Source: a bacterium
GTDB taxonomy: Bacteria; Patescibacteriota; Dojkabacteria; SC72
Direction: 5' to 3'
DNA: 64,000 bases
Assembly (NCBI GenBank): GCA_022840695.1
Contig: JALHDC010000004.1
Location: forward strand, 22,907-86,906
Shown one piece after another: positions 18,439-64,000 of the stretch. Made by a program: the position numbers and the translations under genes. The notes under the pieces were generated by a model, which was given only the letters and a program-made list of their open reading frames with translations, was not told where the DNA came from and did no database searches. The number at the start of each line of letters is the position of its first letter. Within the stretch, counting starts at the first letter, position 1.

Positions 18439-18440
18439 TT

Positions 18441-20534: not shown

Positions 20535-20557
20535 TTTCTAAATTAACCAATAAATAC

Positions 20558-25375: not shown

Positions 25376-25388
25376 CATTGGCATCTAA

Positions 25389-26012
25389 TCTGTTAGTACC
25401 TATCCGCCATTTAAGCAAAATAGTTTTGAGATTTTTACTGTTCAGGATCTTCCTTATTATCAGCAATCATATCTCCCATGGGTTGAAGGTGATTTATCAA
25501 ATATCTCTAATCCAAGGTCTACAATTCTACAAATCGCTAGTAATTATGTAGATTCTCCATCTGCTAAATATTCGTCACCCAGCGAAGGTCTTGATCCCAT
25601 TACTGGTTTCGATTGTAGTGGCTTTGTTCTTACTGTTTTAAATGAGACAAAAGAAATCTTTCCCAATCTTGTTGTCCCAAATGGGATAAGGAATGCAAAC
25701 GAGATTTTTGATAAATTAGGATGTATCATTGATCAAGAATTTGCCTTGCCCGGAGATCTGGTATTTTATACAAGATCAGGAAAAACCCCTTCCCATGTGG
25801 CAATATTTTGTGGGTATACAAAAGAGGGTGAAAGGGTAGAGATAGGCTCTGAGGGCATTTATGGTGGAAGAGTTAAAGTAAGGAAGATTATCGATAAAAA
25901 AATATTAAAACACCAGAATTCGCATACCATTTATAACTCAACCTTGATAGGTTATAAGCGGCTAGTTTATAATGTAAAAAATAATAATCGTTGGCCGACA
26001 AGGATGATCTAA
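25389..26012 (+). CDS. NlpC/P60-family cysteine peptidase domain protein. No canonical start codon in frame; the ORF track shows only an 88-aa TTG fragment. Possibly N-terminally degraded or a pseudogene.
   Basis: Manual translation of frame 3 from the stop at 25386-88 gives '...YVDSPSAKYSSPSEGLDPITGFDCSGFVLTVL...GDLVFY...SHVAIFCGY' (catalytic Cys and His). No ATG/GTG/TTG before 25746. Confidence 0.6.
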   Translation, partial: SVSTYPPFKQNSFEIFTVQDLPYYQQSYLPWVEGDLSNISNPRSTILQIASNYVDSPSAKYSSPSEGLDPITGFDCSGFVLTVLNETKEIFPNLVVPNGIRNANEIFDKLGCIIDQEFALPGDLVFYTRSGKTPSHVAIFCGYTKEGERVEIGSEGIYGGRVKVRKIIDKKILKHQNSHTIYNSTLIGYKRLVYNVKNNNRWPTRMI

Positions 26013-26203
26013 TCATTTCTCTTTGATATATATTCACTTAGACTTACTTTTTGAGATCCAAATAATCTAGCTTCTACAGACATTTTTGAGCATGGTTTAA
26101 TGGATCTTGTAGCAACCAAGGGAATATAGTGGGGCATATATTAACCTAGAATATAAAATTAGAGTGAGACAAAAAAACAGTATAAGGAGGGAAGGTTATG
26201 TTT

Positions 26204-39593: not shown

Positions 39594-39667
39594 GGGCGAT
39601 TAGCTCAGCTGGTCAGAGCATCTCGTTTACACCGAGAGGGTCATAGGTTCGAATCCTATATCGCCCA
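39594..39667 (+). tRNA. tRNA-Val (anticodon TAC)
   Basis: Cloverleaf GGGCGAT/ATCGCCC, anticodon loop TTTACAC, T-arm ATAGG-TTCGAAT-CCTAT. Confidence 0.85.
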
Positions 39668-39753
39668 ATTTTCTTAAACAAATCTTTCTGATACTCTTGT
39701 CATCATACTCCCAGGTATGTAAAATGAATTAGGTTAATTTAACTGCCTTCTTA

Positions 39754-42700
39754 ATGAAAAATATTCAAAAGCATTTTAACGGGAGGAAACTGATTGTAAT
39801 CATGTGTATTTTTACTGTACTTACATTTCTTCCGATAGTAATATACCTATATCTTTCTAAAACCATACAGAGTGTAGCATATACTACATTAGACAATTTT
39901 AATAACACAGTTTATTTAGATATTGCTAATTCCACTAATTATTCCATTTCAAATGGATCTGTAAAAGTAGAACAAATCGCATATGGATATGGTACAGGAG
40001 CTGATGGCGCATGTACTGTGTCAGCAAATAAGGAAATAAATACGGGTAGTTGTGTTGGTAGAGCAAATGGAGATGCTGTAAATTTTAGGGTTACGGCCAA
40101 TGTTGCAGCTGGGAGTAATTCTGTTACATTAAGTTCTGCTCCTACAGGGTTAGCCATTGGAGACGAGATATTAATAATTAATCTACAAGGAACAGCAGCA
40201 GATTATGGAAATGTAGGGAAATATGATACGGCATATATTACTGGGATTAATGGTAATACTCTGGCCTTAGATAGTAATCTTGTTAATGGATATGATGGAA
40301 CAACACAGAAAATTATGGTTCAGAGGATACCACAATATACTGATGTAACTATAAATGCAGGTGTTAACTGGTATCCTTCTGCTTGGGATGGAACAAAGGG
40401 AGGAGTAATGATGTTTAAAGCAAATGGTACAGTTACAGTCAACGGTACTATTACGGTAGCAGGCAGAGGATATAGAGGAGGAGCAGCAGATATAGCAGGA
40501 GGTGCTGGTGAGACATTTGGTGGATATAATAGTGGAACAGGTGGAGATTATAATTTATATGGAGGTGTAAGTGATAGAGGAGAAGCTGGAAATATGGGGG
40601 GTGGAGGAGGCGGTGGCGGAAATTATCAGCATGCAAGTGGTGGGAATTCTGTTGGTGGTGCAGGTTCAGCAACAGGTGGTGCAGGAGGAGGAGGTGGTGG
40701 TGGATCAGGACTTGATTTTAGAAGATCTAGAGGAGGAGGTGGTGGAGGTGGAGGATATGGTACTGCTGCAACCGCAGGGGGTGGTTATCAAGCAGGTACT
40801 TCTGGAGGTACTAATGTGAGTGGTAATGGTGGAAGTGGAAGAGGAAGTAGTAATACAGGAACAGGAGGAGGTGGTGGTGGAGGTGGGACATATGGTGTTG
40901 CTGATTTAAGCAAAGTATATTTTGGTTCAGGAGGAGGTGGAGCAGGTACAGGAGGTCCTAGGAGAGGAGGAGCTGGAGGAATTGGGGGTGGTATTGTTAT
41001 AATATCAGCAAATTCGTTAACTGTAGAACCAACAGCTGGAGTAATTACAGCTGGAGGTTATGCCGGCAGTAATGCTGCATATTATGGACAATGGGCTTGT
41101 GCTGCTGAAGGATCTGGAGGAGGAGGTGGTGGTGCAGCTGGTGGATCTATTAAACTAATTACAAACTCAACCACTGCTGGAACTAATAGAATAAATAGTG
41201 ATGGTGGGAATGGTGGATTAGGAATATGTCATAATGGTGGTAATGGAGGTTCAGGAAGGGTAAGGATTCAATATGTATCATCTTTATCAGGAACAACTAG
41301 ACCTGCTGCAAGTACATTACAAGCTCCTTTATATAAAGATAGTATGATTTTACAATCGCTTGATTTAGTTCATATTGATAGTAATGCTGCAGTTCTTTCT
41401 TTTGCATATTCACTCTCTTCTAGCCCAGCAGGGACATCTAGTTCTGTTCAGTTTAGTACTGATGCGCTTACATGGTACAATTCTTCTGGGAATTTGGGAG
41501 GATCAGATTCTCTTTCTGTTGGTGTAGACAATATAATAGATCTTACAGCATTAGAATGGTTAACTCCTACCTTCTTCTACAAGATTACAACTAATACTAA
41601 TGGAGCAAGTACACCTGTTTTAGATAGCGTCTCTTTGAACTATGATATAACACCATCTGTACCAACGATCGGTGAACCAGAGGCCTTATCTACAGATACA
41701 ATAAGATGGAATTTCACAGATAACGCAACTAATGAAGAAGGTTTTATCTTAGTCGATGAGGAAGGAACCCTTATAAAATACTGCCTAGGAGAAAATCTTA
41801 CATACTGTGATGAAACAGGTTTGCAAGAGAACACTCAATACACAAGAGGAGTTAAAGCATATAATGCTCTCGGAGAGAGTGTATCTTCTGAAACAGCAAC
41901 GGTTTATACCCTCGTTTCAGTTCCTTCCATATTTCCTGGAGGTAGTAAAACAGCTTCCTCATTAACACTTTCTGCTTTAGGTCAAGTCAATAATTCTGAA
42001 ATATATTTTGACTGTGAAAATACAGGCTGTGATACTGGTATAAATGAATGGATATCAACAAGTACGGATGAAGTTACTAATCTTGATTTTAATACTCCAT
42101 ACACATTTAAAGTAAAAGGAAGGAATGGAGATAGTATCGAAACTCCATATTCTGAAAGTATCACGGTATATACATTAGCAGAAGTCCCTTCCATTTCCTT
42201 AACACCACTTTCATCTACATCCGTTACTCTAACAGCGGAAGGTATCAATAATGTTAATGAAGGTAACTCTGGTGTATTCTTTGAATGCGAAGAAGAGGAT
42301 TGTAGTGAAGGAATAACGGAATGGGTACAATCAGAAAGTACAACTGTAACAAACTTAGATCCCAATAGACTATATTTCTTTAGAGTAAAAGCTAGGAATT
42401 TTGATGGAGTAGAAAGTACATTCAGTGAATATATGGGAACATACACAAAGTCCAGTATTCCTAATATTCCAACAGTAGTTTCTCAGACAACAAATAGCAT
42501 AACTATCGCTCTCTCATCTGATAATAATCCAGAAGGTACACAGTATGCCATTATGGAAGAGAAAAGTGGAAAATATGTTGATATATCAACAGGTAGTTTG
42601 GTGGATGATCTAGTATGGGGGACATATACTCAATTCGGATCTGCGAATGGTAAAGAGGTAGTAGGTTTAGAAGTAGGTACAGAATATATATTTAAAGCAA

Positions 42701-45228
42701 AATCTAGAAATGAGGATGATATAGAAAGTGACTTCTCACAATCGGTTACTACCGCAACAAAATTAAATACTCCAACACTTCTCTCGGCTCTTACAACTAC
42801 CACAAACTCATTTACTTGGAGAGTAACAGATGAGAATGCCTCTAAAGTAGGATACAGAATATATGATAGTAACAACAATCTACTTCTAACCTGTTCTGTA
42901 AATACAATGAATCAATGTATAGAAGGAGGTCTTTCTTCTAATACTGAATACTCGAGAAAAGTTAAAGTATACAGTAATATTTCCGAAAGTGACTACTCCA
43001 ACACATTCCTCTTCTCTACATATTCTGAACCCTCAAATATCTCCTCACTGACTGCAGTAGGACCAACATCATTGAGATTAACGATATCTGGAAGTAGTAG
43101 AGATAATTTGCAAATAATGGAAAACAAAAGCAATCGATATTACAGCAATGACTTGAAGGTTCTTACAAGTACATCATCTATGATTCCATTTGCCTCTACT
43201 ATAGATATTGATGGCCTACTCCCAAATACACAGTATGAGTTTAAGATTAGAAGCTTAAATAGAAGGAATATTGCAACAGCATGGTCATCAAACCAATCCA
43301 CATATACATTGGCTCAAAGACCTGCCATGGTTAGAGTAAATGCTGTATCAAGCAATAGTGCTAGAGTATATATTAATTCCTTGGACAATCCTGCGGATAC
43401 AGAACTATTAATTAGAGAAAATAATACTGGTAACTATATAGATTTCAATACTGGAAGGATATCTACTCAGGAAGTATGGGGAACATTCGCGAATTTTGGT
43501 TCGACCAATGGAATTCTCCTTTCTGGATTAGAAGTAGGAACACAGTATGGATTTTCTGTAAAAGCTAGAAACAAGCTATTAGCTCAAACTGATTGGAGTG
43601 ATCCAATATTCATAGGAACGGGAGCAATTTTACAAAATGTTGATGCTAATTTAAGAGCTACATTAACAAATCAGGAAGTAGATTTGACTTCAAGAAGCAA
43701 TGCTCAATTTGGAGAAAAGATTGTTAGAGTAAAGAAAGGAGATATTCTGGTAGCAGATGTCCCTGTCCTATTTAACCAAGATCGTGATTGGGCCAATGCA
43801 GTTATACTAAGTTCCTCAACTGAAAGAAAAAGTGTGGTTAAGCTTGGACAATCTCATGGTGTCTCTAAACCATATACTATGTATGTAAACAGAGATGATA
43901 CAAATGGTTTTCTCATCTGTCCTGCAGTTTCAAAATTGGAAGATGTAAAAGAAAATTGTTTAGGTGGTGTAAGATTTACAGGAAATTTTCCTCAAACAAG
44001 AAGTGTAGAGGGAGTAAATGTAACTGTTTCTCAGACAGTTATAGGTGGAATTAATTATTGGATAGCTGATGGTCTAACAGGAACGGGTGGTTTAGGTTTC
44101 TATTTCGAAGAGCCTGTAAAAGAGACTCCTGTTAAAGAAGAAGTGAAAGAAGAGGGAAAGAATGAAACTTCTGCTGAAGGAAAGAAAGAAACCACTTTAC
44201 AAAAAATAGTGACTGTTTTAAGTGAAGGATACACTGTATTACAGAATGCAAAAAATAGTGCACTGGGTATTTTAGATAATACAGTGGTTAAGGATCTAAA
44301 AGAAAATGAGTTACAAACTGTTTCTACAACAGCTAATGTTGTTACTGTAACAGTAGGGACAACTGCACTGCTTGGAGGTTTAACACAATTAGGCTATGTA
44401 ATAGTACAATTCTTTGCTGTTGTATTAAGCTCCTTTGGTTTTAGAAAGAAAAGAGTTAATTACGGTTTTGTATATGATTCAAATACTAAGGAGCCTGTTC
44501 ATATGGCCTTAGTAAGAATATACAATACTAGAAAAAGATTGATGGATACTGCTGTTACAGATGTTAATGGAAGATTCTCTGCAAGTTTAAATAAAGGTAA
44601 GTATACAATTGAAGTATCTAAGTCTGGTTATGAGTTTCCTAGTGTATATGTAAAAGGTTCTCAAGACTATCCTTTACAAAATGTGTATACAGGAGCTTTA
44701 GAAATCCTTTCTGAAGATGCCGAGGTTCAGGTTGCAGTCCCTATAGATCCTAAAGAGATATTAGGAGCTATGATGTTCTTCTACAGAACAAAAAATGTGT
44801 TGCTTAAAATCCTTTCTGTTGCCAATATCTTCATATTCTTAATTGGTGTTGTTATTTCCTTCTACACATACTTCACTCATGAAAATGTCACAAATTTAAT
44901 GCTTTTGCTTCTTTACATAATTCCATTTGTAATATTGGTTAGATCTTTTGTTAACAAGAAGGGACAGTATGGAAAAGTAGTTGATGAAAATGGTAAATCT
45001 TTGTCTGGAATATCTGTGATAATAAGGGAAAAGGAATTTGATAAGGTGATTGCTAAGAGAGTAACAAATTCAAAAGGTAAGTATAGATTTATATTAGATA
45101 AAGGTAAGTATGAATTGGATATAGATGAAAAAGGTTATGAATTGATAGATATAAAGAGGGGTAGCTTAATAGATGTCAGAAGAGATAACTATGTTTTAAC
45201 AAAGAGAATTAAGGTGAAGAAGAGCTAA
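39754..45228 (+). CDS. giant (1824-aa) surface protein: signal anchor, Gly-rich low-complexity region, ~7 fibronectin type-III-like repeats, and a C-terminal CarbopepD_reg/TM anchor module shared with ORF 2..1543
   Basis: Repeated FN3-like segments ending in '...Y.F.VKARN..G.ES..S' motifs. (GGN)n-encoded Gly tracts. C-terminal ~330 aa paralogous to the C-terminus of the first ORF. Confidence 0.7.
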   Translation: MKNIQKHFNGRKLIVIMCIFTVLTFLPIVIYLYLSKTIQSVAYTTLDNFNNTVYLDIANSTNYSISNGSVKVEQIAYGYGTGADGACTVSANKEINTGSCVGRANGDAVNFRVTANVAAGSNSVTLSSAPTGLAIGDEILIINLQGTAADYGNVGKYDTAYITGINGNTLALDSNLVNGYDGTTQKIMVQRIPQYTDVTINAGVNWYPSAWDGTKGGVMMFKANGTVTVNGTITVAGRGYRGGAADIAGGAGETFGGYNSGTGGDYNLYGGVSDRGEAGNMGGGGGGGGNYQHASGGNSVGGAGSATGGAGGGGGGGSGLDFRRSRGGGGGGGGYGTAATAGGGYQAGTSGGTNVSGNGGSGRGSSNTGTGGGGGGGGTYGVADLSKVYFGSGGGGAGTGGPRRGGAGGIGGGIVIISANSLTVEPTAGVITAGGYAGSNAAYYGQWACAAEGSGGGGGGAAGGSIKLITNSTTAGTNRINSDGGNGGLGICHNGGNGGSGRVRIQYVSSLSGTTRPAASTLQAPLYKDSMILQSLDLVHIDSNAAVLSFAYSLSSSPAGTSSSVQFSTDALTWYNSSGNLGGSDSLSVGVDNIIDLTALEWLTPTFFYKITTNTNGASTPVLDSVSLNYDITPSVPTIGEPEALSTDTIRWNFTDNATNEEGFILVDEEGTLIKYCLGENLTYCDETGLQENTQYTRGVKAYNALGESVSSETATVYTLVSVPSIFPGGSKTASSLTLSALGQVNNSEIYFDCENTGCDTGINEWISTSTDEVTNLDFNTPYTFKVKGRNGDSIETPYSESITVYTLAEVPSISLTPLSSTSVTLTAEGINNVNEGNSGVFFECEEEDCSEGITEWVQSESTTVTNLDPNRLYFFRVKARNFDGVESTFSEYMGTYTKSSIPNIPTVVSQTTNSITIALSSDNNPEGTQYAIMEEKSGKYVDISTGSLVDDLVWGTYTQFGSANGKEVVGLEVGTEYIFKAKSRNEDDIESDFSQSVTTATKLNTPTLLSALTTTTNSFTWRVTDENASKVGYRIYDSNNNLLLTCSVNTMNQCIEGGLSSNTEYSRKVKVYSNISESDYSNTFLFSTYSEPSNISSLTAVGPTSLRLTISGSSRDNLQIMENKSNRYYSNDLKVLTSTSSMIPFASTIDIDGLLPNTQYEFKIRSLNRRNIATAWSSNQSTYTLAQRPAMVRVNAVSSNSARVYINSLDNPADTELLIRENNTGNYIDFNTGRISTQEVWGTFANFGSTNGILLSGLEVGTQYGFSVKARNKLLAQTDWSDPIFIGTGAILQNVDANLRATLTNQEVDLTSRSNAQFGEKIVRVKKGDILVADVPVLFNQDRDWANAVILSSSTERKSVVKLGQSHGVSKPYTMYVNRDDTNGFLICPAVSKLEDVKENCLGGVRFTGNFPQTRSVEGVNVTVSQTVIGGINYWIADGLTGTGGLGFYFEEPVKETPVKEEVKEEGKNETSAEGKKETTLQKIVTVLSEGYTVLQNAKNSALGILDNTVVKDLKENELQTVSTTANVVTVTVGTTALLGGLTQLGYVIVQFFAVVLSSFGFRKKRVNYGFVYDSNTKEPVHMALVRIYNTRKRLMDTAVTDVNGRFSASLNKGKYTIEVSKSGYEFPSVYVKGSQDYPLQNVYTGALEILSEDAEVQVAVPIDPKEILGAMMFFYRTKNVLLKILSVANIFIFLIGVVISFYTYFTHENVTNLMLLLLYIIPFVILVRSFVNKKGQYGKVVDENGKSLSGISVIIREKEFDKVIAKRVTNSKGKYRFILDKGKYELDIDEKGYELIDIKRGSLIDVRRDNYVLTKRIKVKKS
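40540..41225 (+). repeat. Gly-rich low-complexity coding repeats ((GGN)n) inside the giant gene
   Basis: Runs of ggtggaggaggtggt... They generate mirrored antisense pseudo-ORFs (40451..40672, 40571..40819). Confidence 0.6.
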
Positions 45229-45245
45229 ATTTAGTATATAAACAT

Positions 45246-45536
45246 ATGACAATAGGGAGAATGATTTTTGTATTAGGGGGTTGTCTGGTACTAGGTTTAA
45301 TATCTGGTATCGTTACTAGGAATCTTCTTGTAGCTATAGCATTCCCATTTCTTTTAGTAATATTCATATTAATGTGGGTTAATCTTCGAAAGGAGATCAA
45401 GGATGATAAAGAAGATAATGATCAAGAGAATATTGCTAAAACTGGAGTAAATGATATTAATAGAGAGACTCAGCAGAGTAGTGAGGGATATACTCCCCCT
45501 CCAGTCTCTACTAACTATCCAAGTAAGCCATATTAA
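45246..45536 (+). CDS. small membrane protein
   Basis: Two TM helices, hydrophilic tail. Confidence 0.4.
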   Translation: MTIGRMIFVLGGCLVLGLISGIVTRNLLVAIAFPFLLVIFILMWVNLRKEIKDDKEDNDQENIAKTGVNDINRETQQSSEGYTPPPVSTNYPSKPY

Positions 45537-45558
45537 TAGTGGTATAATTGTGAATCAA

Positions 45559-45632
45559 TGGACGATTAGCTCAGCTGGTTAGAGCACTACATTCACATTG
45601 TAGGGGTCGTTGGTTCGAATCCATCATCGTCC
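45559..45632 (+). tRNA. tRNA-Val (anticodon CAC)
   Basis: GGACGAT/ATCGTCC acceptor, anticodon loop TTCACAT, T-loop TTCGAAT (one T·T mismatch in the T-stem). Confidence 0.75.
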
Positions 45633-45634
45633 AA

Positions 45635-46126
45635 TTAACCTTTTAACTCACTAGTACAGTAAGGACACCTCTTAGCATCTTGATGTATATCAGATTTACA
45701 ATATGGACACTTCTTTGTACTATCCTGCTTCTTCTCTTCTTCCTTCCTGTTAAATTTGCTCAAAAGCTTTCCACTTTGATATACAAGTAGAAAAAGAATA
45801 AAGGCAGTTATTAAAAAAGTTATAAACTCATTAATAAAATTTCCATACTGTATTACAACAGCACCTGCTTCCTTTGCAGCATTCAAAGAATCATACTTAG
45901 TAGTAGTACCAAATACAAAATACAAACTTGTAAAATCTATACCTGATGTAATATGAGCTATTGGAGGGGTTAATATATCATTAACTAATGAATTAATAAC
46001 ATCCCTCAATGCAGCACCCAACATAATACCAACTGCAGCACCTAAAGTAGCTTCCTTTAATGCAAAATTCTTAAACTCATCAGAAAGTTTCTTGACTCTC
46101 TTCTCCAATCTTCTTTTCTCCACCAT
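45635..46126 (-). CDS. mscL: large-conductance mechanosensitive channel MscL with a C-terminal CPYC...CPYC zinc-ribbon extension
   Basis: 'GAAVGIMLGAALRDVINSLVNDILTPPI' MscL TM1 signature. Extra tail 'KKCPYCKSDIHQDAKRCPYCTSEL'. Confidence 0.75.
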   Translation of the reverse strand: MVEKRRLEKRVKKLSDEFKNFALKEATLGAAVGIMLGAALRDVINSLVNDILTPPIAHITSGIDFTSLYFVFGTTTKYDSLNAAKEAGAVVIQYGNFINEFITFLITAFILFLLVYQSGKLLSKFNRKEEEKKQDSTKKCPYCKSDIHQDAKRCPYCTSELKG

Positions 46127-47336
46127 TCTTTAATTTACTTAATTTAAATAACAGATATATCACTGTGAATAAAAATAGTGATCCAAAAACAATAACTTGA
46201 TTTTGCATAACCATATCTAAAGAATCATTCCTCTTAATGAAAAGAACTATTTGCAATACGGTTATAAATAGAAGAATGTATAAATATTTAAAATAACTTT
46301 TAGATATAAAAAAGTTTGTAGTCATATATACAAATGCAAAACCTGCCATACATAAACCAAAAATACCTATATACCTATTTATTCCGTTATACTGAGATCC
46401 AACAGTAATATCTACAACATGTCCGTTAAAGATGAAGAATAAAGTGGACAAGAATATTCCAATGAAAAGAGATAATCCTAAGGATAGGAGTAAACTCTTC
46501 TTCTGACTATTCTCATTCTTCTCATTTGTTAGTCTAGCAAACATAACGGAAGCTGTCGTGATCGATGCAAAGTATACCAATTTCCCAAGCAAAGATATTG
46601 CTGCATACTCCGCCCTGAATATTGGATTAACCAATATTAAATCAACAGTATATGGTGCTGTTAGAAGTAGGAAACAGGTTGTGATGAGTAATAACTCTTT
46701 AAAGTTTCTCTTTACCTCCTCACTCTTTCTAGAATCAAATTTAATTAATGGTAGTAATATCAATGTGGATAGCATTCCTGGAACAGAAGAAGCAAGTATT
46801 AAAAGAGGTAATGATCCTCCATATTTAATAGCTACTATACCCACTAAAAATCTAAGTACTGTTTCAATCAGAAGTACAATATTAACCTCTATAACCTTCT
46901 CTATACCCAAAAGTAATCCTTTCCCTACAGGACTTACAAAAGCAAAAAGTAGTGTTAATGATAGATATATGACTGTTTCTTTTGGTATAGAAGCTATATC
47001 TACAACTAAGTCTTTAAGAATAAAGAAAATCAAAGAAAGAAATATTCCAATTATGAAAAAAATTAACAATGATCTCCATTTATATCTCTCTAAATCCTTC
47101 TCTTTGTTTAAGGCTACATCCTTTGTAATAGTGGCTTGTATCGCTACAGCTGGGATCTGCAATATATATATAATTCCTAGTACAGAGCTGTAGAATCCAA
47201 ATATCTCTACAGTTGTATATCTTGCTACAAAAATATTGAAAAGATAGTTTAGTATACCGATGAATCCCCCTAATACGGTTGTTAAGAACAGATGTCTAAC
47301 AAAAAGGATCTCTTTTTCTGATAGTTTCCTAATCAT
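46080..47336 (-). CDS. polysaccharide-biosynthesis / oligosaccharide flippase (Wzx/MurJ-like MOP superfamily) membrane protein
   Basis: ~12 TM helices. 418 aa. Confidence 0.5.
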   Translation of the reverse strand: MIRKLSEKEILFVRHLFLTTVLGGFIGILNYLFNIFVARYTTVEIFGFYSSVLGIIYILQIPAVAIQATITKDVALNKEKDLERYKWRSLLIFFIIGIFLSLIFFILKDLVVDIASIPKETVIYLSLTLLFAFVSPVGKGLLLGIEKVIEVNIVLLIETVLRFLVGIVAIKYGGSLPLLILASSVPGMLSTLILLPLIKFDSRKSEEVKRNFKELLLITTCFLLLTAPYTVDLILVNPIFRAEYAAISLLGKLVYFASITTASVMFARLTNEKNENSQKKSLLLSLGLSLFIGIFLSTLFFIFNGHVVDITVGSQYNGINRYIGIFGLCMAGFAFVYMTTNFFISKSYFKYLYILLFITVLQIVLFIKRNDSLDMVMQNQVIVFGSLFLFTVIYLLFKLSKLKNGGEKKIGEESQETF

Positions 47337-47366
47337 ATTTAGTCTATAATAGCATACGATAACTTT

Positions 47367-48506
47367 ATGTATTTTAACATGATGATTGATGTAATAATAG
47401 CATTAATAGGGGGCATACTACTTGGTATTGGACTCTTCTATATACTCAAAAGAGGACAAGGAGTAAATGGGGATGATGTGAAGGATAGTATAGAGGAAAA
47501 GTTAGAGGAGATAGTGCCAAAAGCATTGATGGAAGCTAATGAATATTTGGTTAGGACAGCTAGAGAATCTTTAGCATCAGAAAGTAAGCAGAATAAGATA
47601 GATTTTGAAAATAAAAGAGAGGAAATATCTAGAATGGTAAAAGGTTTGGAGGAGTATTTAAAAACTGCAGAAAAAGAAAGGATAGATTCATTTTCTAGTT
47701 TAAAAACTTCTGTAGAGGAGAGTAGGAAGATTACAGAACAACTTTCTGTTAGTACAGAAAGTTTGAAGAAGGTTCTTTCAAATAATCAACTAAGAGGACA
47801 ATTTGGAGAACAGGTAGCAGATGATCTTTTAAAAATGGCTGGTTTTGTAAGGGGTGAGGATTATGAATTTAATAAAGAACAGGCCGGTTCTGAAACAAGA
47901 CCTGATTTTGCAATATTTCTACCAGATAGAACTAGAATAAATGTAGATTCAAAATTCCCATATGCCAACTTACAGAGAATGTCGGAAGCTGAAGATAAGG
48001 AAAGCAAAGAAAAATATATGAAATTGTTTGAGAAAGATGTTAGAGAGAAGATTAAGCAGGTTACATCTAGAGATTATATTAGTCCAGAGGACAAAACTGT
48101 TGATTTTGTAATACTGTTTATTCCTAATGAAATGATATTTTCATATATATACGACAAGATGCCTGAACTTTCACAGGAGGCTATGGCAAGCAAGGTGGTA
48201 TTAGCAGGCCCTTTTAGTTTTACAGCTATGCTAAGAATGATTAAACAATCGTATGAGAACTTTAGAGTTCAGAAGAATATATATAATATCATTGGTCATG
48301 TAAAAGCATTTGAAAAGGAGTTTGATACCTTCTCTGGAGAATTTTATAAAATAGGGGATAGGATAGGGTCATTACAGAAGCAGTATGAATCTGTAAGCAG
48401 TACTAGATTTAATCAATTAGTAAGGAGAATAGATAAGGTAAAACAGGAGGGAATAGGGGATGGAGAAGAGAAGGAGCAGAAGATATTGATTGATGTGGTA
48501 CCTTAG
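47367..48506 (+). CDS. rmuC: DNA recombination protein RmuC
   Basis: N-terminal TM, coiled coil, C-terminal 'DFVILFIPNEMIFSYIY...VVLAGPFSFTAMLRMI'. Confidence 0.75.
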   Translation: MYFNMMIDVIIALIGGILLGIGLFYILKRGQGVNGDDVKDSIEEKLEEIVPKALMEANEYLVRTARESLASESKQNKIDFENKREEISRMVKGLEEYLKTAEKERIDSFSSLKTSVEESRKITEQLSVSTESLKKVLSNNQLRGQFGEQVADDLLKMAGFVRGEDYEFNKEQAGSETRPDFAIFLPDRTRINVDSKFPYANLQRMSEAEDKESKEKYMKLFEKDVREKIKQVTSRDYISPEDKTVDFVILFIPNEMIFSYIYDKMPELSQEAMASKVVLAGPFSFTAMLRMIKQSYENFRVQKNIYNIIGHVKAFEKEFDTFSGEFYKIGDRIGSLQKQYESVSSTRFNQLVRRIDKVKQEGIGDGEEKEQKILIDVVP

Positions 48507-48528
48507 AGGGGGACAATATTATTTGACA

Positions 48529-49188
48529 CTACTTTATTAATTCTCCGTTTTTTAGGATTAGAACTTCTCCTAGAATCTCTATTTTTCCATCATCAACAAA
48601 TATTCCATTGTTGTCTTCACATAAGTAAATAGTTCTTTCCTCATTAATCTTTGAGTAGTCAATAAATTTTTCAATAAGATGTCTTTTTACTTGAAGATGA
48701 GGTAAGAATTCGAAATCCACTAAGCCCATACCTTGTAAATCCTCATCCTTGTATACCTCTTCTGTGTAGACCACCCTCTTTATTTCAAAATGTGGAGTCA
48801 TAACATAACTTCCTGCACTAATGCCAACCAAGATACCTCCTTTATCCAAAAACTGCTTGAGTGTTTTCTTGAAATCTCGTTTTTTAATATTTTTTGCAAA
48901 CTCAATGGTATCTCCACCTGAAAGATGAATCAAGTCACATGATAGAAGCTTCTCGATATCTCGTTCGTTATACTCCTCACCTAAATCAAAATATTGATAA
49001 TTTTTTACCCCATATTTCTTATACCAATCTTTTGTTCTATTAAAATATTTTCTAGTGGGATCTGAAACAGAAGGTATGTAGCCTATCCTTGCTAATTTAG
49101 GATTTAACAAAGAGAAGATCTTTTTATCTACAGGATTATTGAATGTGGTATGGTCACTGTGGAAAAATAATTTCATCAGATATATCAA
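48529..49188 (-). CDS. peptidase S51 family protein (second paralogue)
   Basis: 'LIHLSGGDTIEF...LVGISAGSYVM'. Confidence 0.6.
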   Translation of the reverse strand: MIYLMKLFFHSDHTTFNNPVDKKIFSLLNPKLARIGYIPSVSDPTRKYFNRTKDWYKKYGVKNYQYFDLGEEYNERDIEKLLSCDLIHLSGGDTIEFAKNIKKRDFKKTLKQFLDKGGILVGISAGSYVMTPHFEIKRVVYTEEVYKDEDLQGMGLVDFEFLPHLQVKRHLIEKFIDYSKINEERTIYLCEDNNGIFVDDGKIEILGEVLILKNGELIK

Positions 49189-49268
49189 ATGATTTTAATA
49201 TGAACATTATATATGAAAAACAAAAAGGGAGTACAGTGTACTCCCCTTTAATACCATTCACTAGCTAA

Positions 49269-49820
49269 TTACTCTTTCTTTCCCCAAGCAAGTATACCTA
49301 ATAGCACAATATTTGCCACAGGTACTAATGCTAACAATCCTAATAGCTTGTCATAACCTCTCTTCTCACAAATATTCATAAGAGCGATTATCGAAAGAAT
49401 TCCAACCACCAATGCTCCAATTCCAGGAATTAATACAAGTAATATTAATAATGGATTCTGATCTCCCATTCTGAATAGTAAAACAACATTAAGAATAGGA
49501 ATCCATGCATACCAAGGATTTTCTTCATTTAATCTTTTAGCTATATTCATAAGTGCTAAAGAAGAAAATATATACATACCTAAGGATAGAGTTATCCCAA
49601 TGACTAAGGCAATTCCTCCAAATACTAAACCTGCACCAAGGAGTTCTTCCAAATTTTCAGTACTATCGTAAATAGGACCCGATCCATCCCAATAAATCAA
49701 ATCATCACTACTAGTTACTTCAAAATCCTCATCTGTTTGTGCATATGAAGGTAATGCTACAAATGATAGCGACATCATTGCCAAGATGAAGCATAATCCT
49801 AAATTAATTAGTTTTCGCAT
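49269..49820 (-). CDS. hypothetical secreted multi-TM membrane protein
   Basis: Signal peptide plus 3-4 TM helices. Confidence 0.4.
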   Translation of the reverse strand: MRKLINLGLCFILAMMSLSFVALPSYAQTDEDFEVTSSDDLIYWDGSGPIYDSTENLEELLGAGLVFGGIALVIGITLSLGMYIFSSLALMNIAKRLNEENPWYAWIPILNVVLLFRMGDQNPLLILLVLIPGIGALVVGILSIIALMNICEKRGYDKLLGLLALVPVANIVLLGILAWGKKE

Positions 49821-49881
49821 AAAGTATATTTAATAAATTATATAAATATATTCTTCCATATTTGGAAATAAACCTCAATAT

Positions 49882-50490
49882 ATGTTAACTTATATATTAA
49901 TGAATGCCCCAATATTTAAAACAATAGAAGGTAAAAAGAATATACTTCTCTCCGCACCTCATGTATATGCCCATAGAAGGCCAAGATTAAGCATGGGATA
50001 TAAGTTGGGAGAACCATTAACGGACACCATTGTTGAAGATGTTTGTAGAAATATAAATAGCTGGGGTATTGTTCTTAAGGATGAATCTGATTTTGATGCT
50101 AACTATCACAAAGAAGATGATAATCCATATAAACAGGAAGTTAAGTTAATTGTAAAGAAACAGAAGATAAAATACTTCTTAGATATACATGGTTTAAAAG
50201 ATGGACAAATGTACGATATTGCTATCTACTATCCTACACAGTTTAGGAAATCGATAGAGTTAGCAAGAAGTATAAAGAATGGTTTAGATAAGGGAAAATT
50301 AAAGGGAGTAAATATAGCAATATTTAGATTTTTAGATAATCATCAGGAAACCTTAGGTGAATACTGTGCAAATAATCTAAGAGTACCTTCAGTACAAATA
50401 GAAATATCTAAATATATTAGAGAGAGCCAAAAGTTAAGAGACGAATTAGTGAATAATCTCTCAACAGTATTGGATAAACAGGTAATATAA
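49882..50490 (+). CDS. N-formylglutamate amidohydrolase-family-like protein
   Basis: 'LLSAPHVYAHRRP...DANYHK...LDIHG' pattern. Weak. Confidence 0.4.
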   Translation: MLTYILMNAPIFKTIEGKKNILLSAPHVYAHRRPRLSMGYKLGEPLTDTIVEDVCRNINSWGIVLKDESDFDANYHKEDDNPYKQEVKLIVKKQKIKYFLDIHGLKDGQMYDIAIYYPTQFRKSIELARSIKNGLDKGKLKGVNIAIFRFLDNHQETLGEYCANNLRVPSVQIEISKYIRESQKLRDELVNNLSTVLDKQVI

Positions 50491-50587
50491 TATTATTATC
50501 GGTTAATTAAATTTTTTGTTTCATATTTTGACCTTCTCTCTCCACTCTGTTATTCTGAATATGTAATAAATTTATGTAAATATACTA

Positions 50588-51613
50588 ATGACAGCAACTG
50601 TTAAAAAGAAAATGGATCCTGAAATTAAGATGGATTCTCCAAAGAAAAAAGCTATAGAAATGGCTATATCTCAAATAGAAAAGCAATTTGGAAAAGGATC
50701 CATAATGAAGTTAGGAGAACAAACAAAAGTGGATGTAGATGTAATCCCAACAGGAGCACTTTCTTTAGATATTGCATTAGGAATAGGGGGTATTCCAAAA
50801 GGTAGAATAGTAGAAATATATGGGCCAGAGGCATCTGGAAAAACAACATTAGCTATCCATATCTTGACTGAAGCTCAAAGAAAAGGAGAGGCTGTAGCAT
50901 TCATAGATGCAGAGCATGCATTTGATCCAACATATGCAAAAAATATCGGTTTAAATATGGATGAATTGTATATATCTCAACCGGACTTTGGAGAACAAGC
51001 ATTGGAAATTTTAGAAACATTAGTAAGATCTGCAGCATTCGGTGTAATAGTTGTAGACTCTGTTGCTGCTCTAACTCCTAGGGCTGAAATAGAGGGAGAT
51101 ATGGGTGATAGTCATATGGGTCTTCAAGCTAGATTAATGTCTCAGGCTTTAAGAAAAATTACTGCAATATCTAGTAAAACAGGAACAACCATAATATTCC
51201 TTAATCAATTAAGAATGAAAATTGGAATAATGTTTGGTAATCCAGAAACAACCACAGGTGGAAATGCATTAAAATTCTATGCTTCGATTAGAATGGATAT
51301 TAGGCAGAAGGATAAAATACTTAAGGATGGAAAGTTAATAGGGCATTCTAGAAAAGTTAAAGTTGTTAAAAATAAAATGGCTCCTCCTTTCAAAGAGGCA
51401 ACCTTTAATATGATATATCCAAAAGGTATAGATAAAGAAAGTAGTATATTGGATGCCGCATTAGAATTGGGAGTAGTAGAAAAAGCTGGTGCATGGTTTA
51501 GATATGGAGATATACAACTCGGACAGGGTAGAGAGGCAACATCTGATTTCCTTAGAGAGGATAAAAAGCTTAGAGATAAGATAGAGAAGGAAGTTAAAGC
51601 AAAAATTAAATAA
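50588..51613 (+). CDS. recA: recombinase RecA
   Basis: '[16 protein letters not shown]', '[11 protein letters not shown]', 'VVDSVAAL' etc. Essentially full-length match to bacterial RecA. Confidence 0.95.
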
Positions 51614-58337: not shown

Positions 58338-58408
58338 TGCCGGATCGTCTAATGGTAGGACGACGGTCTCTGAAACCGTTAATTCTAGTTCGAATCTAGG
58401 TCCGGCAA
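58338..58408 (+). tRNA. tRNA-Gln (anticodon CTG) with a U1-A72 first pair
   Basis: Acceptor TGCCGGA/TCCGGCA, 3-bp D-stem, anticodon loop CTCTGAA, T-arm TCTAG-TTCGAAT-CTAGG. 71 nt, no CCA. Confidence 0.7.
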
Positions 58409-58411
58409 TTT

Positions 58412-58765
58412 CTATTCAAATGTCGGTTTTAATCCAAATGATTTTCCTGGGCTTAGCTCAACAGTTATTGGAGATTCTCTATTTTCTATCTTTATTGCAA
58501 ACTCTTTTCCCTCTTCATCCGGAATAGCTTCATATTCTCTGATTTCCGGATCAGTCAGGGTTTCCAAATATGCTTTATAGGATACATTCCCATTTTCATC
58601 TTGGAATCTTGCTAAACCAATTAATTGATATTTAAAGCATACTCCTAAAAGTGAAGCTTTAGTGCTTTCTGTTTCTTTTCCTTTTAAAAGTTGATCAAGT
58701 GTATCTCTATATATTCTTAAGGTTCGTTCTGTTTGATCTTCAGGTTCTTTATTCCACCATTCCAT
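58412..58765 (-). CDS. hypothetical protein
   Basis: ORF only. Confidence 0.35.
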   Translation of the reverse strand: MEWWNKEPEDQTERTLRIYRDTLDQLLKGKETESTKASLLGVCFKYQLIGLARFQDENGNVSYKAYLETLTDPEIREYEAIPDEEGKEFAIKIENRESPITVELSPGKSFGLKPTFE

Positions 58766-58775
58766 AATAAATTTG

Positions 58776-60550
58776 TTATATTTTATCTATATCTAATTTT
58801 ACCGTATATAAGCCTTTTTTCCAAATCTCCTTCCTGGTAATATCTATTCCCATTCCATTGAATATTTCATATGGTGATTTACTACTTCCAGAACTTAAAA
58901 ATTCTTTTACAAATTTAATATTTTCTATATCCTCTTTAACCATGCTTTGTAATGCTTTTGATATTAATAATCCGCTAGCATATGAATATACATAAAAAAA
59001 TTTTCTAAAATGACCAATATATATCCAACCATTTCTCATGCCTTCATCTTCATCTACATGCTCTCCTAGATATGCCTTCATATGTTTGCAAAAAAGATCA
59101 GATATATACTCCTTGCTAAGATATCCCTGTTTTCTAAATTCTGAATGTAATTCTTTTTCGAAGTTGTAAAATGCTACCTGCCTAAAGATAGAAGATACAT
59201 CCGAATTTATTTTCTCTGCTAATATAGCAAATTTAAGATCATCATTAGCTGTCTTTAATATCTCTTCCAGTACAAAATCCTCAAAAAATGTACTAGCTAT
59301 CTCTGCTAATGAAGTTGGATAGTGGCTGTTTAAAGAATTCTGCCTATGAGAAAATTCCGAGTGTATAGCATGCCCACTCTCATGCGCAATGGTTAGTACA
59401 TCATTTAGCTTCTCATTGAAGTTTAATAGTATATATGTAGGGAGATTCTTCCCAATGGTTATACAGAACCCTCCTCCTGTTTTACCTTGCTTTGCAAATG
59501 CATCGTACTGTCCATTTTTTAGAAAATTCTTAACAACATTTCCAAATTGAGTATCGATATCTTTAAAAGTATTTTGAACTAATTTAATTCCATCCTCAAA
59601 GGAGTATTGCATATCGACATTACCTAGTGGGACATTTCTTTCATGATATCCAAGTGTTTTCTGATTTAACAGTTTTGCCTTCTTTCTGTAATACTCTCTT
59701 GATATATGGAAGTTCTTTGTAACTGTATCCACTAAAGCATCAACAACAGTACTATCAATATCATCTGCTATATGTCTTGTTAAATCTGGTCTAGGTATTC
59801 CTCTATACTCATCAGATATCTTCTTATTTTCTAGAACTGAATTAATTTCAAACTCCGCTATCTCTGCATATCTACCATTTATTTTGTTAAACTCATTCGC
59901 TGCAATATCTCTAACCTCTTTGTTTTTAGCATTAAGATACTTTTGTATATCGTTGTAGGTTATTTCAATATTTTTCCCATCTTCATCTTTAATATTTAGT
60001 TTTTGCTTGTCAGTCAATTCTGAAATCATGTCTACCCAATTGGAATGGGATGTTTTGCTTGTTAGATTAAATATTTTTTCTTCTTTATCTGTGAGTAGAT
60101 ACTCTGAACCTCTGAAAAGAGATTCAAGGAAGTGTTTGTATGGTTCTAATTCCTTTGCCTTTAGAAATATTTTCTGTTGCTTTTTACCCACCTTTGAAAT
60201 ATTTAATTCAAAAAACTGTATATCATTACCAAGCTTTGTAGAAATATTGTCTAGTTTATTTAATTCTCCTTTTATTTTTGTATTTGTTTGGTCAAGGTTA
60301 TTAAGGAGGAGGAAGTAATAGATTGGTTTATTGCAAAGTCCAGTAGTTGCATACAGTTTCTCATATTCATCTAAGGCCTCTCTTAGTGCTGTCGGGTTTT
60401 GAGTGCTGTCGGGTTTTGAAGATACTCTTTATTGTTTCTCCACTTTTTTACAAAAGCCAAAACATTTTTTTTAGATTCCTCTATATCCTTTTTGATCTGT
60501 GGATCTTTTGTAGATGAATATAGGAGTTTTAGATTCCATTTTGTTTGCAT
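58776..60550 (-). pseudogene. pepF: oligoendopeptidase F (M3 family) disrupted by a 17-bp tandem duplication (frameshift). The N-terminal 46 codons (from the ATG at 60550) are out of frame with the 471-aa ORF 58776..60191.
   Basis: HExxH 'HESGHAIH' in the 471-aa ORF. Manual translation from the ATG at 60550 gives 'MQTKWNLKLLYSSTKDPQIK...NPTAL' then hits a stop inside the second repeat copy. Deleting one 17-mer joins the frames into a ~586-aa PepF. Confidence 0.7.
60385..60418. repeat. perfect 17-bp x2 tandem duplication AGTGCTGTCGGGTTTTG
   Basis: Verified base by base. Confidence 0.9.
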
Positions 60551-60640
60551 TTTTAATTATATCGTTAATATGTTGATATATCTAGATTTTTTAACTATTT
60601 TTTTGTAAAATGTCCTGTATCTAGTTCCTCCTAGATAGGG

Positions 60641-60718
60641 GAAGCCTTTCCTTAGGCGGCAGGGCTTCCCCAGAGGAAGAAACAAAATATATCTAATGAT
60701 ATTTGTTTCTTCCTCCCT
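60641..60718 (+). other. two adjacent perfect GC-rich hairpins (GGGGAAGCC..GGCTTCCCC and AGGAAGAAACAAA..TTTGTTTCTTCCT) in the pepF/ileS divergent intergenic region
   Basis: 9-bp and 13-bp perfect inverted repeats with ~16-nt loops. Confidence 0.5.
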
Positions 60719-60724
60719 CAATTT

Positions 60725-60945
60725 TCTTTGTGATATAATTACTTAACACTTAGACCCAGATATCACTGGCGAGTGGTGGAAAGAAAGTCATATGACGAGT
60801 AGAATCCAACGATTAGTAATCGAAATATTACCAAACCATATTAAGTGGTTAAGAACAAAATAGGGTGGTACCGCGTACTAATGTTCGCCCCTTTGTTAAG
60901 ATTAATATATACTGTATATTAGTTTTAACAGAGGGGTTTTTGTTT
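60725..60945 (+). promoter_or_regulatory. T-box riboswitch leader of ileS: T-box AGGGTGGTACCGCG (60862-60875), antiterminator A1/A2 helices, terminator CCCCTTTGTTAA/TTAACAGAGGGG + TTTTTGTTT
   Basis: Exact 14-nt T-box core. Bulge UGGUACC. 3' CGC-CCCT pairs with AGGG/GCG. Competing intrinsic terminator 60888..60945. Candidate Ile specifier codons AUC/AUU at ~60806-60816. Confidence 0.85.
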
Positions 60946-60968
60946 AATTAATATATGAAAGAAAAGAT

Positions 60969-63938
60969 ATGGGTAAATCTAAAATACCAGAAGTAAATCC
61001 TAGGCCAAATTTTAGTGGTATGGAAGATGGATTAATTGAATTTTGGAAGGAGAAAGATATTTTTAAAAAGAGTATTGAGAGTAGATCTACAGAAAGAAGA
61101 TTCTCCTTCGTAGATGGGCCTCCCTTTGTTACAGGTACTCCACACTATGCATCACTTCTTGTCTCAATACCTAAGGATATAATCCCAAGATATTGGACTA
61201 TGAAGGGATATAGGGTTAGGAGAGTTTGGGGTTGGGATTGTCATGGATTGCCTATTGAGGAAAGAGTGAGCAAAAATTTGAATGTAAAGGACAGGAGGGA
61301 TATAGAGGAGAGGATTGGGGTGGATGAGTATGTTGGTCAATGTAGAAATTATGTTGAGAAGGGTATTACAGATTGGAGATGGTATATCGAGAAAATAGGA
61401 AGATGGGTAGATTTGGATAATGCATATCGTACCATGGACCCAGAATTTAATGAGTCTGTAATTTGGGCATTTAAACAGATTTGGGATAAAGGGTATATAT
61501 ACAAAGGGAAGAGAGTCTCTTTGTATTCTACTGATGCATCTACACCAGTTTCTAATTTTGAAGTGACTATGGATGATACATATGAGGATGTTGAGGATAT
61601 TGCAATATTTGTTAAGTTTCAGTTAAAGAGTGATAGGTTTGATGAGTATACTAACGGGGAACCTGTTAAATTAGTAGCATGGACAACTACTGCATGGACC
61701 ATACCTGCTAATTTTGCTCTTGCTGTTAACAAAGACTTTGAATATTCAATTGTTAAATACAAAAATGAATATTTAGTGGTAGCTACAGATAGGTTGGAAT
61801 ATACATTTGGGGATGAAGAGTATGAAGTGGTAAAGAGTGTTATGGGGACAGAATTTGAAGAATTAGAATATGAACCAGCATACGATTTCTATGTAAATAC
61901 TGGAACTAAAAAGGATTGGCACGTATATCTTTCTGAGGATGTAACATCTGATGAAGGTACAGGAATACTGCATATAGCCCCTGGCTTTGGAGAAGTAGAT
62001 TTCAATATAGGTCAGAAGTTGGGTTTAAGTACTATAGTTCATATTGATGAAGCAGGAAATATGCTTGATGGAGATTGGAAAGGTATGTATATCAGAGATG
62101 CATCTCCAGTTATAACAGAAGATCTTGAAAAGAGTGCAAAGCTACTTAGATCTGAGAAGTATGTACACAGACTTCCTTTCTACAGAGGCTCTAATCCTCT
62201 CATATATATGACTCAAGATTCATATTTTATCGATATTCAGAAGATTAAGCCAAAGATGTTAGAGTTGCAAAAGAAGATCAACTGGGTACCAAGTACTTTC
62301 AAAAAGAGATTTGAATATGTTTTAGAAACATCTCCTGATTGGGCAATATCCAGAAATAGATATTGGGCAACAATAATGCCGGTTTGGGAGAGTGAAGATG
62401 GTGAGCAGTTAGTTGTTGGTGGAATAGAGGAGATGATGAAGTATACAGATCAAATTGAAAAAGTTGAAATTGAAAACGGTAAGTTTGAATACAGAGTGAA
62501 TGGCAAAAAGATGACTCTACATAGAGATGTATGTGATCAGATAGTTCTAAAGAAAGATGGAAAGGAATTTAGAAGAATTCCTGAGGTATTAGATTGTTGG
62601 ATGGATTCAGGAAGTGTTCCTTTTGCGGAACATCACTATCCTTTTGAAAATAAAGAGGCTTTTGAAGAGGCATTTCCTGCTGATTTCATAGTTGAATATA
62701 CAGGGCAGATAAGGGCATGGTTTAATGTTTTGTTTAGAATGTCTATCCTTCTCTTTGATGATATCCCATATAAAAATGTCGTTTGTACTGGGGTTATGTT
62801 TGGTAATGATGGAAGAAAGATGAGTAAATCATATCAAAACTACTCTGATCCTAAAGAAACACTTGAAGCTAAGGGAGGAGAAGCATTAAGGCTCTACATA
62901 ATGTCTACTCCAATCATGGCAGGAGGAGACATCTCTTGGTCAGATGAGCTATTGGATGAACAGATTAAGGATGTTTTAATTCCTCTTTGGAATACATATA
63001 GATACTTATCTTTATATGCAAATATACATTCATGGTCTCCTGAAAGTACAGAGTATACATCTAAGAATAATTTGGATAAATGGATAGAATCATACATGAA
63101 GAGTGTGACAATAGAGTACTCTAAAGCATTGGAAAGCTACAATATACCTGTTTCTGTTAAATTGATACAGCCATGTATAGATAATATCTCTCAGTGGTGG
63201 ATTCGAAGATCTAGGGATAGATTTGCAAATGGAGATCATGATGCTCTTCAAACATTGTATGCCACTATGGTTCTTTTCTCTAAGACATTTGCTCCTCAAA
63301 TGCCTTTCTTAACTGAAGAAATATACCAAAATCTTGTTGTAAAGGCAGGAATAAAGGATAGTGAAGAATCAGTTCACTTAGAAAAATATCCAGAATTTGA
63401 AGAAAAAGATATCAATAGAGAATTGTTAGAAAAAATGTCTCTCGCAAGACAGATTTGTTCAAATGGTCTTCAAGCTAGGGAAATATCAAAGATTAGTTTA
63501 AGACAACCTCTTTCCAAAGCATATATAGCGATGGATGATGAATATATTATGAGTGTTGTAAAAGAGGAATTAAATTTAAAAGAAGTACTGTTTTCTAAGG
63601 AAGTAAATGAAGAAGATGGACTGATAACTGTAGGGGAGAATGAATTGACTGTATCCTTGGATACTAATATGACAGAGGAATTAAAAAATGAAGGTACTAT
63701 AAATGATTTCCTTAGGAAGTATAGAGATCTAAGAAAAAAGAAAGGTCTAAGAATGGATGATAAGGTTTCAGTTACTTTCTCATTCGAAGGTGGAGATGTT
63801 AAGGATGTACTTAGTGAGTATGTTTTAGGCAATATGGATGTATTACAAGCTAAGGATGTAAAAATATCCGAAAAGATCCAAGAGGGTATAGGTGGGTTTT
63901 CTATTGCAAATACTAAAGTTTTGGTACTTTTTGAGTAA
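60969..63938 (+). CDS. ileS: isoleucyl-tRNA synthetase, eukaryote-like type 2
   Basis: 'GPPFVTGTPHYASLL' (type-2 IleRS HIGH-region variant), 'DWAISRNRYWATIMP', 'KMSKS' (GRKMSKSYQNY). 989 aa. Ile-type T-box upstream. Confidence 0.8.
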   Translation: MGKSKIPEVNPRPNFSGMEDGLIEFWKEKDIFKKSIESRSTERRFSFVDGPPFVTGTPHYASLLVSIPKDIIPRYWTMKGYRVRRVWGWDCHGLPIEERVSKNLNVKDRRDIEERIGVDEYVGQCRNYVEKGITDWRWYIEKIGRWVDLDNAYRTMDPEFNESVIWAFKQIWDKGYIYKGKRVSLYSTDASTPVSNFEVTMDDTYEDVEDIAIFVKFQLKSDRFDEYTNGEPVKLVAWTTTAWTIPANFALAVNKDFEYSIVKYKNEYLVVATDRLEYTFGDEEYEVVKSVMGTEFEELEYEPAYDFYVNTGTKKDWHVYLSEDVTSDEGTGILHIAPGFGEVDFNIGQKLGLSTIVHIDEAGNMLDGDWKGMYIRDASPVITEDLEKSAKLLRSEKYVHRLPFYRGSNPLIYMTQDSYFIDIQKIKPKMLELQKKINWVPSTFKKRFEYVLETSPDWAISRNRYWATIMPVWESEDGEQLVVGGIEEMMKYTDQIEKVEIENGKFEYRVNGKKMTLHRDVCDQIVLKKDGKEFRRIPEVLDCWMDSGSVPFAEHHYPFENKEAFEEAFPADFIVEYTGQIRAWFNVLFRMSILLFDDIPYKNVVCTGVMFGNDGRKMSKSYQNYSDPKETLEAKGGEALRLYIMSTPIMAGGDISWSDELLDEQIKDVLIPLWNTYRYLSLYANIHSWSPESTEYTSKNNLDKWIESYMKSVTIEYSKALESYNIPVSVKLIQPCIDNISQWWIRRSRDRFANGDHDALQTLYATMVLFSKTFAPQMPFLTEEIYQNLVVKAGIKDSEESVHLEKYPEFEEKDINRELLEKMSLARQICSNGLQAREISKISLRQPLSKAYIAMDDEYIMSVVKEELNLKEVLFSKEVNEEDGLITVGENELTVSLDTNMTEELKNEGTINDFLRKYRDLRKKKGLRMDDKVSVTFSFEGGDVKDVLSEYVLGNMDVLQAKDVKISEKIQEGIGGFSIANTKVLVLFE

Positions 63939-64000
63939 TTACTATAAGGTGTGTTTGTATATTGACATTCTAACTGGTTTTTACTAGAGTCATACTAAGC

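Follow-up and report, generated by a model that had tools for sequence, protein, structure and literature searches.

A 17-bp tandem duplication disrupting an M3B-family oligoendopeptidase gene in one Dojkabacteria assembly

Has a conserved peptidase gene been inactivated in this Dojkabacteria genome, or does the assembly misrepresent an intact gene? In this study, the 64,000-nt stretch at positions 22,907 to 86,906 of contig JALHDC010000004.1 (GCA_022840695.1; hereafter the window) was analysed. The G+C content of the window was 33%. The 17-mer AGTGCTGTCGGGTTTTG occurred exactly twice in the window, with starts at 60385 and 60402, as a perfect head-to-tail tandem spanning 60385-60418. Tandem Repeats Finder detected a single array (60385-60419, period 17, 2.1 copies, 100% matches, score 70). 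The extra 0.1 copy came from base 60419 (A), which equals the first base of the 17-bp unit, and the duplication therefore has 1 bp of microhomology. Within 58600-60800, the minus strand reads ...CTT CAAAACCCGACAGCACT CAAAACCCGACAGCACT AAGAGAGG... at this site. The junction specific to the duplication is that of GGGTTTTG with AGTGCTG, as in GCTGTCGGGTTTTGAGTGCTGTCGGG, while the single-copy allele is marked by the junctions CTCTCTTAGTGCTGTCGGGTTTTGAAGATAC.

A direct scan of the 64-kb window for perfect tandem duplications with a period of at least 10 found this array alone, and no further tandem duplications were present as a sign of sloppy assembly. The chance expectation for a perfect period-17 duplication, calculated from base composition over 64 kb, was about 2.5e-5. 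Since the array was also the sole instance in the window, it is not a chance feature. A search for a local hairpin able to template the duplication gave only a weak fold of -10.6 kcal/mol over 85 nt. Neither Ns nor other join marks were present in the sequence.

The duplication lies in codons 45-50 of a minus-strand peptidase gene and splits it into ORFs of 55 and 471 aa. The coordinates of both copies and of the resulting reading frames are listed in Table 1. The preliminary description of this DNA, in which a perfect 17-bp tandem at 60385-60418 disrupted a pepF gene, was confirmed by both the repeat search and translation. It had placed the end of translation inside the second copy. The premature stop is real, but the TAA consists of the last base of the second copy and two flanking bases, and so sits at the edge of the copy rather than strictly inside it. 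Beyond the premature stop, the nearest ATGs are out of the peptidase frame and begin a 32-aa ORF (60272-60370). In the other frame, open reading begins just upstream of the duplication and continues to 58776. The 471-aa ORF runs from GTG 60191 to 58776 on the minus strand; only 58776-60191 is listed as an ORF because no ATG, GTG or TTG precedes GTG 60191 in that frame. When either copy was deleted, an ORF of 1758 nt and 585 codons was obtained, with the HESGH site kept. The 471-aa ORF and its in-frame fusion after removal of one copy were thus reproduced as first described, and the M3 peptidase with an intact HESGH site stood as well; its length is 585 aa, the earlier figure of about 586 having included the stop.

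Table 1. Coordinates of features at the peptidase locus and of related gene starts and leaders (window positions, except where a related contig is named)
Feature	Position	Strand	Remark
17-bp unit, gene-3'-proximal (second copy in transcription direction)	60385..60401	-	Last transcribed base used by premature TAA (60383-60385)
17-bp unit, gene-5'-proximal (first copy in transcription direction)	60402..60418	-	Native frame, reads QNPTAL
5' fragment ORF, 55 aa	60383..60550	-	ATG 60550; native residues 1-50, then out-of-frame KTRQH, TAA
Other-frame stretch encoding native residues 45-585	58776..60401	-	Includes HESGH and the Glu of LAEIAS
Best promoter-like site of peptidase gene, TAGATA-17-TATAAT	60556..60584	-	10/12 matches; consensus match only
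117-aa ORF without assigned family	58412..58765	-	Begins 10 nt past the peptidase stop
Gene-start examples	60551-60575 (-), 4759-5382 (-), 6034 (+), 12516-14018 (-), 22842 (+), 30567-31574 (-)		
T-box-like leader in related contig L018	4420-4559	-	
T-box-like leader in related contig L001	3724-3875	-	
T-box-like leader in related contig L026	4241-4391	-	
T-box-like leader in related contig L010	4636-4796	-	
T-box-like leader in related contig L029	4715-4886	-	

The protein repaired by removal of one copy was compared with family models and structures. It scored 131.9 bits against Pfam Peptidase_M3 (PF01432; gathering cut-off 27) and 40.5 bits against Peptidase_M3_N (PF08439; cut-off 25). The best NCBIfam model was TIGR02290 (M3_fam_3), which was matched end to end (model positions 1-583 of 587) at 396.6 bits, below its cut-off of 561.7; the pepF equivalog TIGR00181 gave 284.9 bits, below its cut-off of 490.55. 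The 471-aa ORF by itself matched TIGR02290 only from model position 114. At the junction of the repaired ORF, residues were neither extra nor missing against the M3-family models. Sequence matches in the PDB were 3CE2, a putative peptidase (2.8e-46), and 2QR4, oligoendopeptidase F (1.1e-43). The top database matches to the repaired protein were 577-609 aa long, and the source names of its closest homologues point to a Dojkabacteria (WS6) / Patescibacteria lineage.

The three-dimensional structure of the repaired protein was modelled by AlphaFold with 67 homologues (pLDDT 92.3, pTM 0.90). Foldseek matched the model to full-length M3B structures, including 3ce2 (TM 0.81 over 599 alignment columns), 2qr4, 2h1j/2h1n and 3ahm, and Pz peptidase A was among the best matches. 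H384, E385 and H388 of the HExxH motif and E411 of LAEIAS were invariant across the 67 homologues, E411 being presumably the third zinc ligand, a Glu that in this family lies about 25 residues downstream of the motif. The predicted 55-aa product would terminate within helix 47-63 of the model. The 471-aa ORF alone would be without four confidently modelled, conserved helices (17-37, 47-63, 68-80 and 85-113).

M3/M3B membership was indicated by the Pfam scores, the HExxH motif with its downstream Glu, and the full-length fold including the N-terminal helices. The gene is a predicted M3B-family, PepF-like zinc oligoendopeptidase gene. It resembles the reference M3B oligoendopeptidases (MEROPS M3B; Lactococcus and Bacillus PepF; 3CE2, 2QR4, 2H1N and 3AHM) in domains, HESGH plus Glu, length and fold. 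Unlike them, it falls below the cut-off in both NCBIfam models, and the gene is frameshifted in the present assembly. By these scores, the repaired protein is a divergent Patescibacteria branch and not a callable PepF equivalog. Since both NCBIfam scores were under the curated cut-offs, the label pepF is loose, and M3B-family (PepF-like) oligoendopeptidase is safer. The name pepF given to the gene earlier therefore holds for the M3/M3B family, in view of the Pfam matches, the fold and HESGH, but not in the strict equivalog sense.

Single-copy alleles were found in several assemblies. The repaired protein and P0001, a protein already in the database, were 100% identical over 585 aa. P0001 is encoded on contig JALHFM010000003.1 of GCA_022839185.1 and on a Logan contig of SRR18493545. 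The DNA alignments of the window to these two contigs, 15,225 bp and 5,658 bp long, contained 0 mismatches and one 17-bp gap. Between window positions 4115 and 64000 (59,886 bp), the only differences from GCA_022839185.1 were the duplication and one synonymous SNP at 20740 (G in the window, A in GCA_022839185.1). Logan contigs of a further run, SRR18493547, covered 12068-26748, 39613-51250, 58343-60097 and 60188-64000 (about 31.9 kb) with 0 mismatches and carried the G of the window at 20740. The contig of this run that spans the duplication site (L040) had one copy only. The tie between the window and SRR18493547 is inferred from this single SNP. Between the Logan contigs of SRR18493547, 90 nt of the peptidase gene (60098-60187) are missing, some 200 nt away from the duplication. 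Nothing visibly repetitive was seen there; low coverage or a strain bubble is possible.

More distant strains gave the same picture. Logan contigs of SRR31593243, SRR31593249 and SRR29340345 were about 98% identical to the window and had a single copy of the identical 17-mer. A single-copy allele in other strains or bins, the check proposed in the preliminary description, was thus found in a sister MAG, two read-set assemblies and three strains of about 98% identity. In the peptidase gene, codon differences between the window and the latter strains were 20 synonymous and 4 non-synonymous, or 10 and 5, which indicates purifying selection on the gene in these strains. Sixteen of the 24 codon differences from the strains of contigs L032 and L033 fell within 35 codons (codons 448-482, window about 59090-59190). 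This clustering suggests a recombination tract rather than uniform divergence. Among the aligned homologues, the N-terminal 113 residues were well conserved, and an insertion at the duplication site was absent in all 16. In a collection of 15 billion proteins, the 55-aa and 471-aa products occurred only in the NCBI record that holds the window and in none of the Logan assemblies. JGI metagenome contigs, scanned for exact occurrences of the junction 23-mer, gave 0 matches.

Judged from these comparisons, a single copy is ancestral, and the lineage has a functional gene that is under selection. The absence of any other change in the gene, together with one synonymous SNP in 59.9 kb, makes the duplication extremely young. 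By the same alignments, it postdates every other substitution in the gene and nearly all of those in 60 kb. The ORF is disrupted relative to the intact 585-aa orthologues, with a frameshift after residue 50; further decay or shared disruption was not found, with 0 other differences and a single copy in five related contigs. An old or decaying pseudogene was rejected, as the repaired gene is identical to the intact allele and the disruption is absent in relatives.

The surroundings of the gene were also inspected. The -10 hexamer of the best promoter-like site ends 5 nt before ATG 60550, and the peptidase mRNA may therefore be leaderless. All 40 long ORFs examined in the window start with ATG, while a Shine-Dalgarno-like motif was seen in 2 of the 40. 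In many long ORFs, a TATAAT-like hexamer lies upstream, its end about 5-12 nt from the ATG. These starts suggest widespread leaderless or Shine-Dalgarno-independent initiation in the genome. The 117-aa ORF downstream of the peptidase gene had no Pfam or NCBIfam match; wherever a closely related contig extends this far, the two are neighbours. Co-transcription of the pair is probable, and the premature stop could exert polarity on the 117-aa ORF.

On the other side, the intact ileS gene that had been noted as a neighbour was verified at 60969-63938 (TIGR00392, 764.6 bits; cut-off 621.4). A T-box-like leader was observed at 60742-60945 on the plus strand, upstream of the ileS ATG at 60969. It scored 45.2 bits against Rfam RF00230 (gathering 93, E 7.5e-9), and the score is below threshold because the distal Stem I is missing. 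A short hairpin CCAG-nnAUCA-CUGG (about 60757-60770) carries an invariant AUC+A, an Ile codon plus purine, in its loop; a compensatory change to CCGG...CCGG was found in one relative. Downstream of the invariant T-box sequence AGGGUGGUACCGCG come a long AT-rich terminator hairpin and a U-run. The leader was kept in 5 of the 5 Dojkabacteria relatives scanned, at 40-56 bits. In Actinobacteria, 'ultrashort Stem I' ileS T-boxes are described as mostly translational (review PMC7583486). The leader described here resembles them but appears to end in an intrinsic terminator. The spacer between the peptidase gene and this leader (60616-60720) contains two strong hairpins side by side, both relatively rich in G+C, GGGGAAGCC...GGCTTCCCC and GAGGAAGAAACAAAATAT...ATATTTGTTTCTTCCTC, with a fold of about -52.8 kcal/mol over 140 nt. 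The hairpins had no Rfam family, were unique in the window, and were undetectable by sequence in relatives whose proteins are about 63% identical. An insulator between divergent promoters and a small RNA are possibilities for these hairpins. Elsewhere in the window, 39754-45228 on the plus strand encodes a protein of 1824 aa that matches CarboxypepD_reg-type and, faintly, fn3-type repeats. Coordinate arithmetic puts a contig break of GCA_022839185.1 within this gene, near window 41750, and only Logan SRR18493547 yielded the exact protein.

The data are best explained by a real slippage-type duplication that is carried by part of the sampled population and is not fixed in the lineage, a reading to which we give somewhat better than even chances. 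A single 17-bp segment (codons 45-50) would have been copied in tandem in an otherwise intact, strongly conserved peptidase gene, likely by replication slippage or another template switch with 1 bp of microhomology only. The extra 17 nt would shift the frame and halt translation after 50 native residues; with the remaining 535 codons lacking a suitable start, the result would be a null allele. The assembler would have happened to follow the variant allele, presumably present in the reads. Such an allele could revert through loss of one copy, like any tandem duplication, and would not be a dedicated switch. The main competitor is an artefact of assembly or consensus, which we hold to be a serious possibility, though short of even odds. 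The true DNA would then be single-copy, and the extra copy would derive from a contig join, gap closure, polishing or manual curation; for example, two pieces with a 17-bp overlap could have been abutted instead of merged. Several observations speak for a real variant and against an artefact. The assembly is otherwise clean, with no further indel in 59.9 kb compared with independent assemblies, which shows that the consensus is not generally error-prone. The junction k-mers are absent from the single-copy allele, and a k-mer assembler with k>17 should be unable to write them without reads that contain them. Join marks and Ns are lacking, and the contig break of SRR18493547 is away from the duplication rather than at it. 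However, the duplication is known from one assembly alone, and GCA_022839185.1, Logan SRR18493545 and Logan SRR18493547, three independent assemblies of one population, are all single-copy with base-identical flanks. SRR18493547 matches the window at the only discriminating SNP and yet is without the duplication; if the window was assembled from this run, the duplicated allele is not in the majority there. The missing Logan source of the broken products points the same way, and the empty JGI junction scan also weighs against a real variant. All relatives seen conserve the gene, no aligned homologue has the insertion, and a reduced genome would a priori not be expected to lose a peptidase that is universally conserved. 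The absence of additional decay in the gene likewise agrees with an artefact. Local errors in MAG assemblies are comparable in that a lone small indel in one of several assemblies of the same population breaks a conserved gene; the present duplication differs in that it is not at a detectable contig join and is accompanied by no other error in 59.9 kb.

Other explanations carry much less weight. An adaptive reversible switch, by which cells of the population would turn the peptidase off through duplication and on again through exact loss of a copy, is very unlikely in our judgement. A perfect tandem duplication is in principle revertible by slippage, and both alleles appear to coexist in one population. 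Nevertheless, five close contigs each carry exactly one identical copy without a pre-existing tract, the forward event should be rare with 1 bp of microhomology, and one OFF allele was seen once. Peptidase biology also suggests no gain from switching off. We attach equally slight probability to a segregating, revertible knockout at appreciable frequency in a natural Dojkabacteria (CPR) population that toggles the oligopeptidase and possibly, by polarity, the 117-aa gene. If true, it would be a natural duplication-based reversible knockout in an uncultivated episymbiont. The suggestion that the locus is still functional, either through the 471-aa ORF expressed alone or through a -1 ribosomal frameshift, placed between the TAA and the in-frame stop upstream of it, that gives the full-length protein with a 6-residue insertion, appears more improbable still. 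If the ribosome slipped by -1 at any point within about 40 nt upstream of the TAA, the frame would be restored, and the heptamer A_AAC_CCG fits the formal X_XXY_YYZ pattern; the same heptamer is also in the intact allele, where an efficient shift would be harmful. Since the one heptamer that is formally slippery is of a weak type and shared with the intact allele, programmed -1 frameshifting was rejected. The start of the 471-aa ORF is GTG against ATG in all 40 long ORFs, a consensus scan found no promoter-like site just upstream of this internal GTG (60191), and the product would be without the conserved N-terminal M3B-fold helices (residues 1-113). The GTG start, the absence of an upstream promoter-like site and the four lost helices leave independent expression of the 471-aa ORF without support, and it was rejected. 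Least probable of all is the footprint of a mobile element, in which a transposon with a 17-bp target-site duplication would have inserted and later excised precisely. Abutting target copies are the expected appearance of such a footprint, but no remnant of an element lies between the copies, and related contigs are without an insertion at the site. Bacterial insertion sequences seldom make target duplications of 17 bp, and they seldom excise cleanly. The transposon footprint was rejected as unsupported in the absence of a remnant and of insertions in related contigs.

Of the options offered in the preliminary description, a very recent mutation or an assembly error fits the data, while a reversible switch fits only trivially, as it would for any tandem duplication. 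Whether mutation or error, the event is of an ordinary kind and affects a known enzyme family, and the duplication raises no new mechanistic question. The case mainly calls for caution: a reconstruction of gene content or metabolism from this MAG would score a universally conserved peptidase as absent or as a pseudogene on account of a 17-bp event missing from sister assemblies of one population. If reads confirm the duplication, it would provide a dated natural loss-of-function allele in an uncultivated bacterium with a reduced genome, the frequency of which could be tracked across samples.

The duplication was compared with known repeat-based systems. Simple-sequence contingency loci have a standing array of numerous short units, which strains share. 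The peptidase gene is similar in that a change of repeat copy number shifts the frame, but differs in that its 17-mer is unique and single-copy in all relatives. A phase-variable contingency locus was rejected, as a standing repeat tract and copy-number variation are absent in relatives. Gene inactivation by an intragenic tandem duplication, with precise reversion, is already documented in other organisms. Phase variation via spontaneous sequence duplication is described for pneumococcal cap3A, cap8E and tts (Waite et al. 2001, 2003, cited in PMC4022640). In S. pombe, microhomology-mediated tandem duplications form at about 8e-7 and revert at about 1e-4, roughly 100 times the forward value; their microhomology is 5-8 bp and their units are 55-92 bp long (bioRxiv 10.1101/2020.03.03.972455). 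The peptidase duplication differs from the S. pombe duplications in its 1 bp of microhomology and 17-bp unit. Unlike the pneumococcal and S. pombe cases, it was seen once, and the likeness is in form only: like them, it is a short, perfect intragenic tandem that causes a frameshift and from which the ancestral sequence is recoverable by the loss of one copy.
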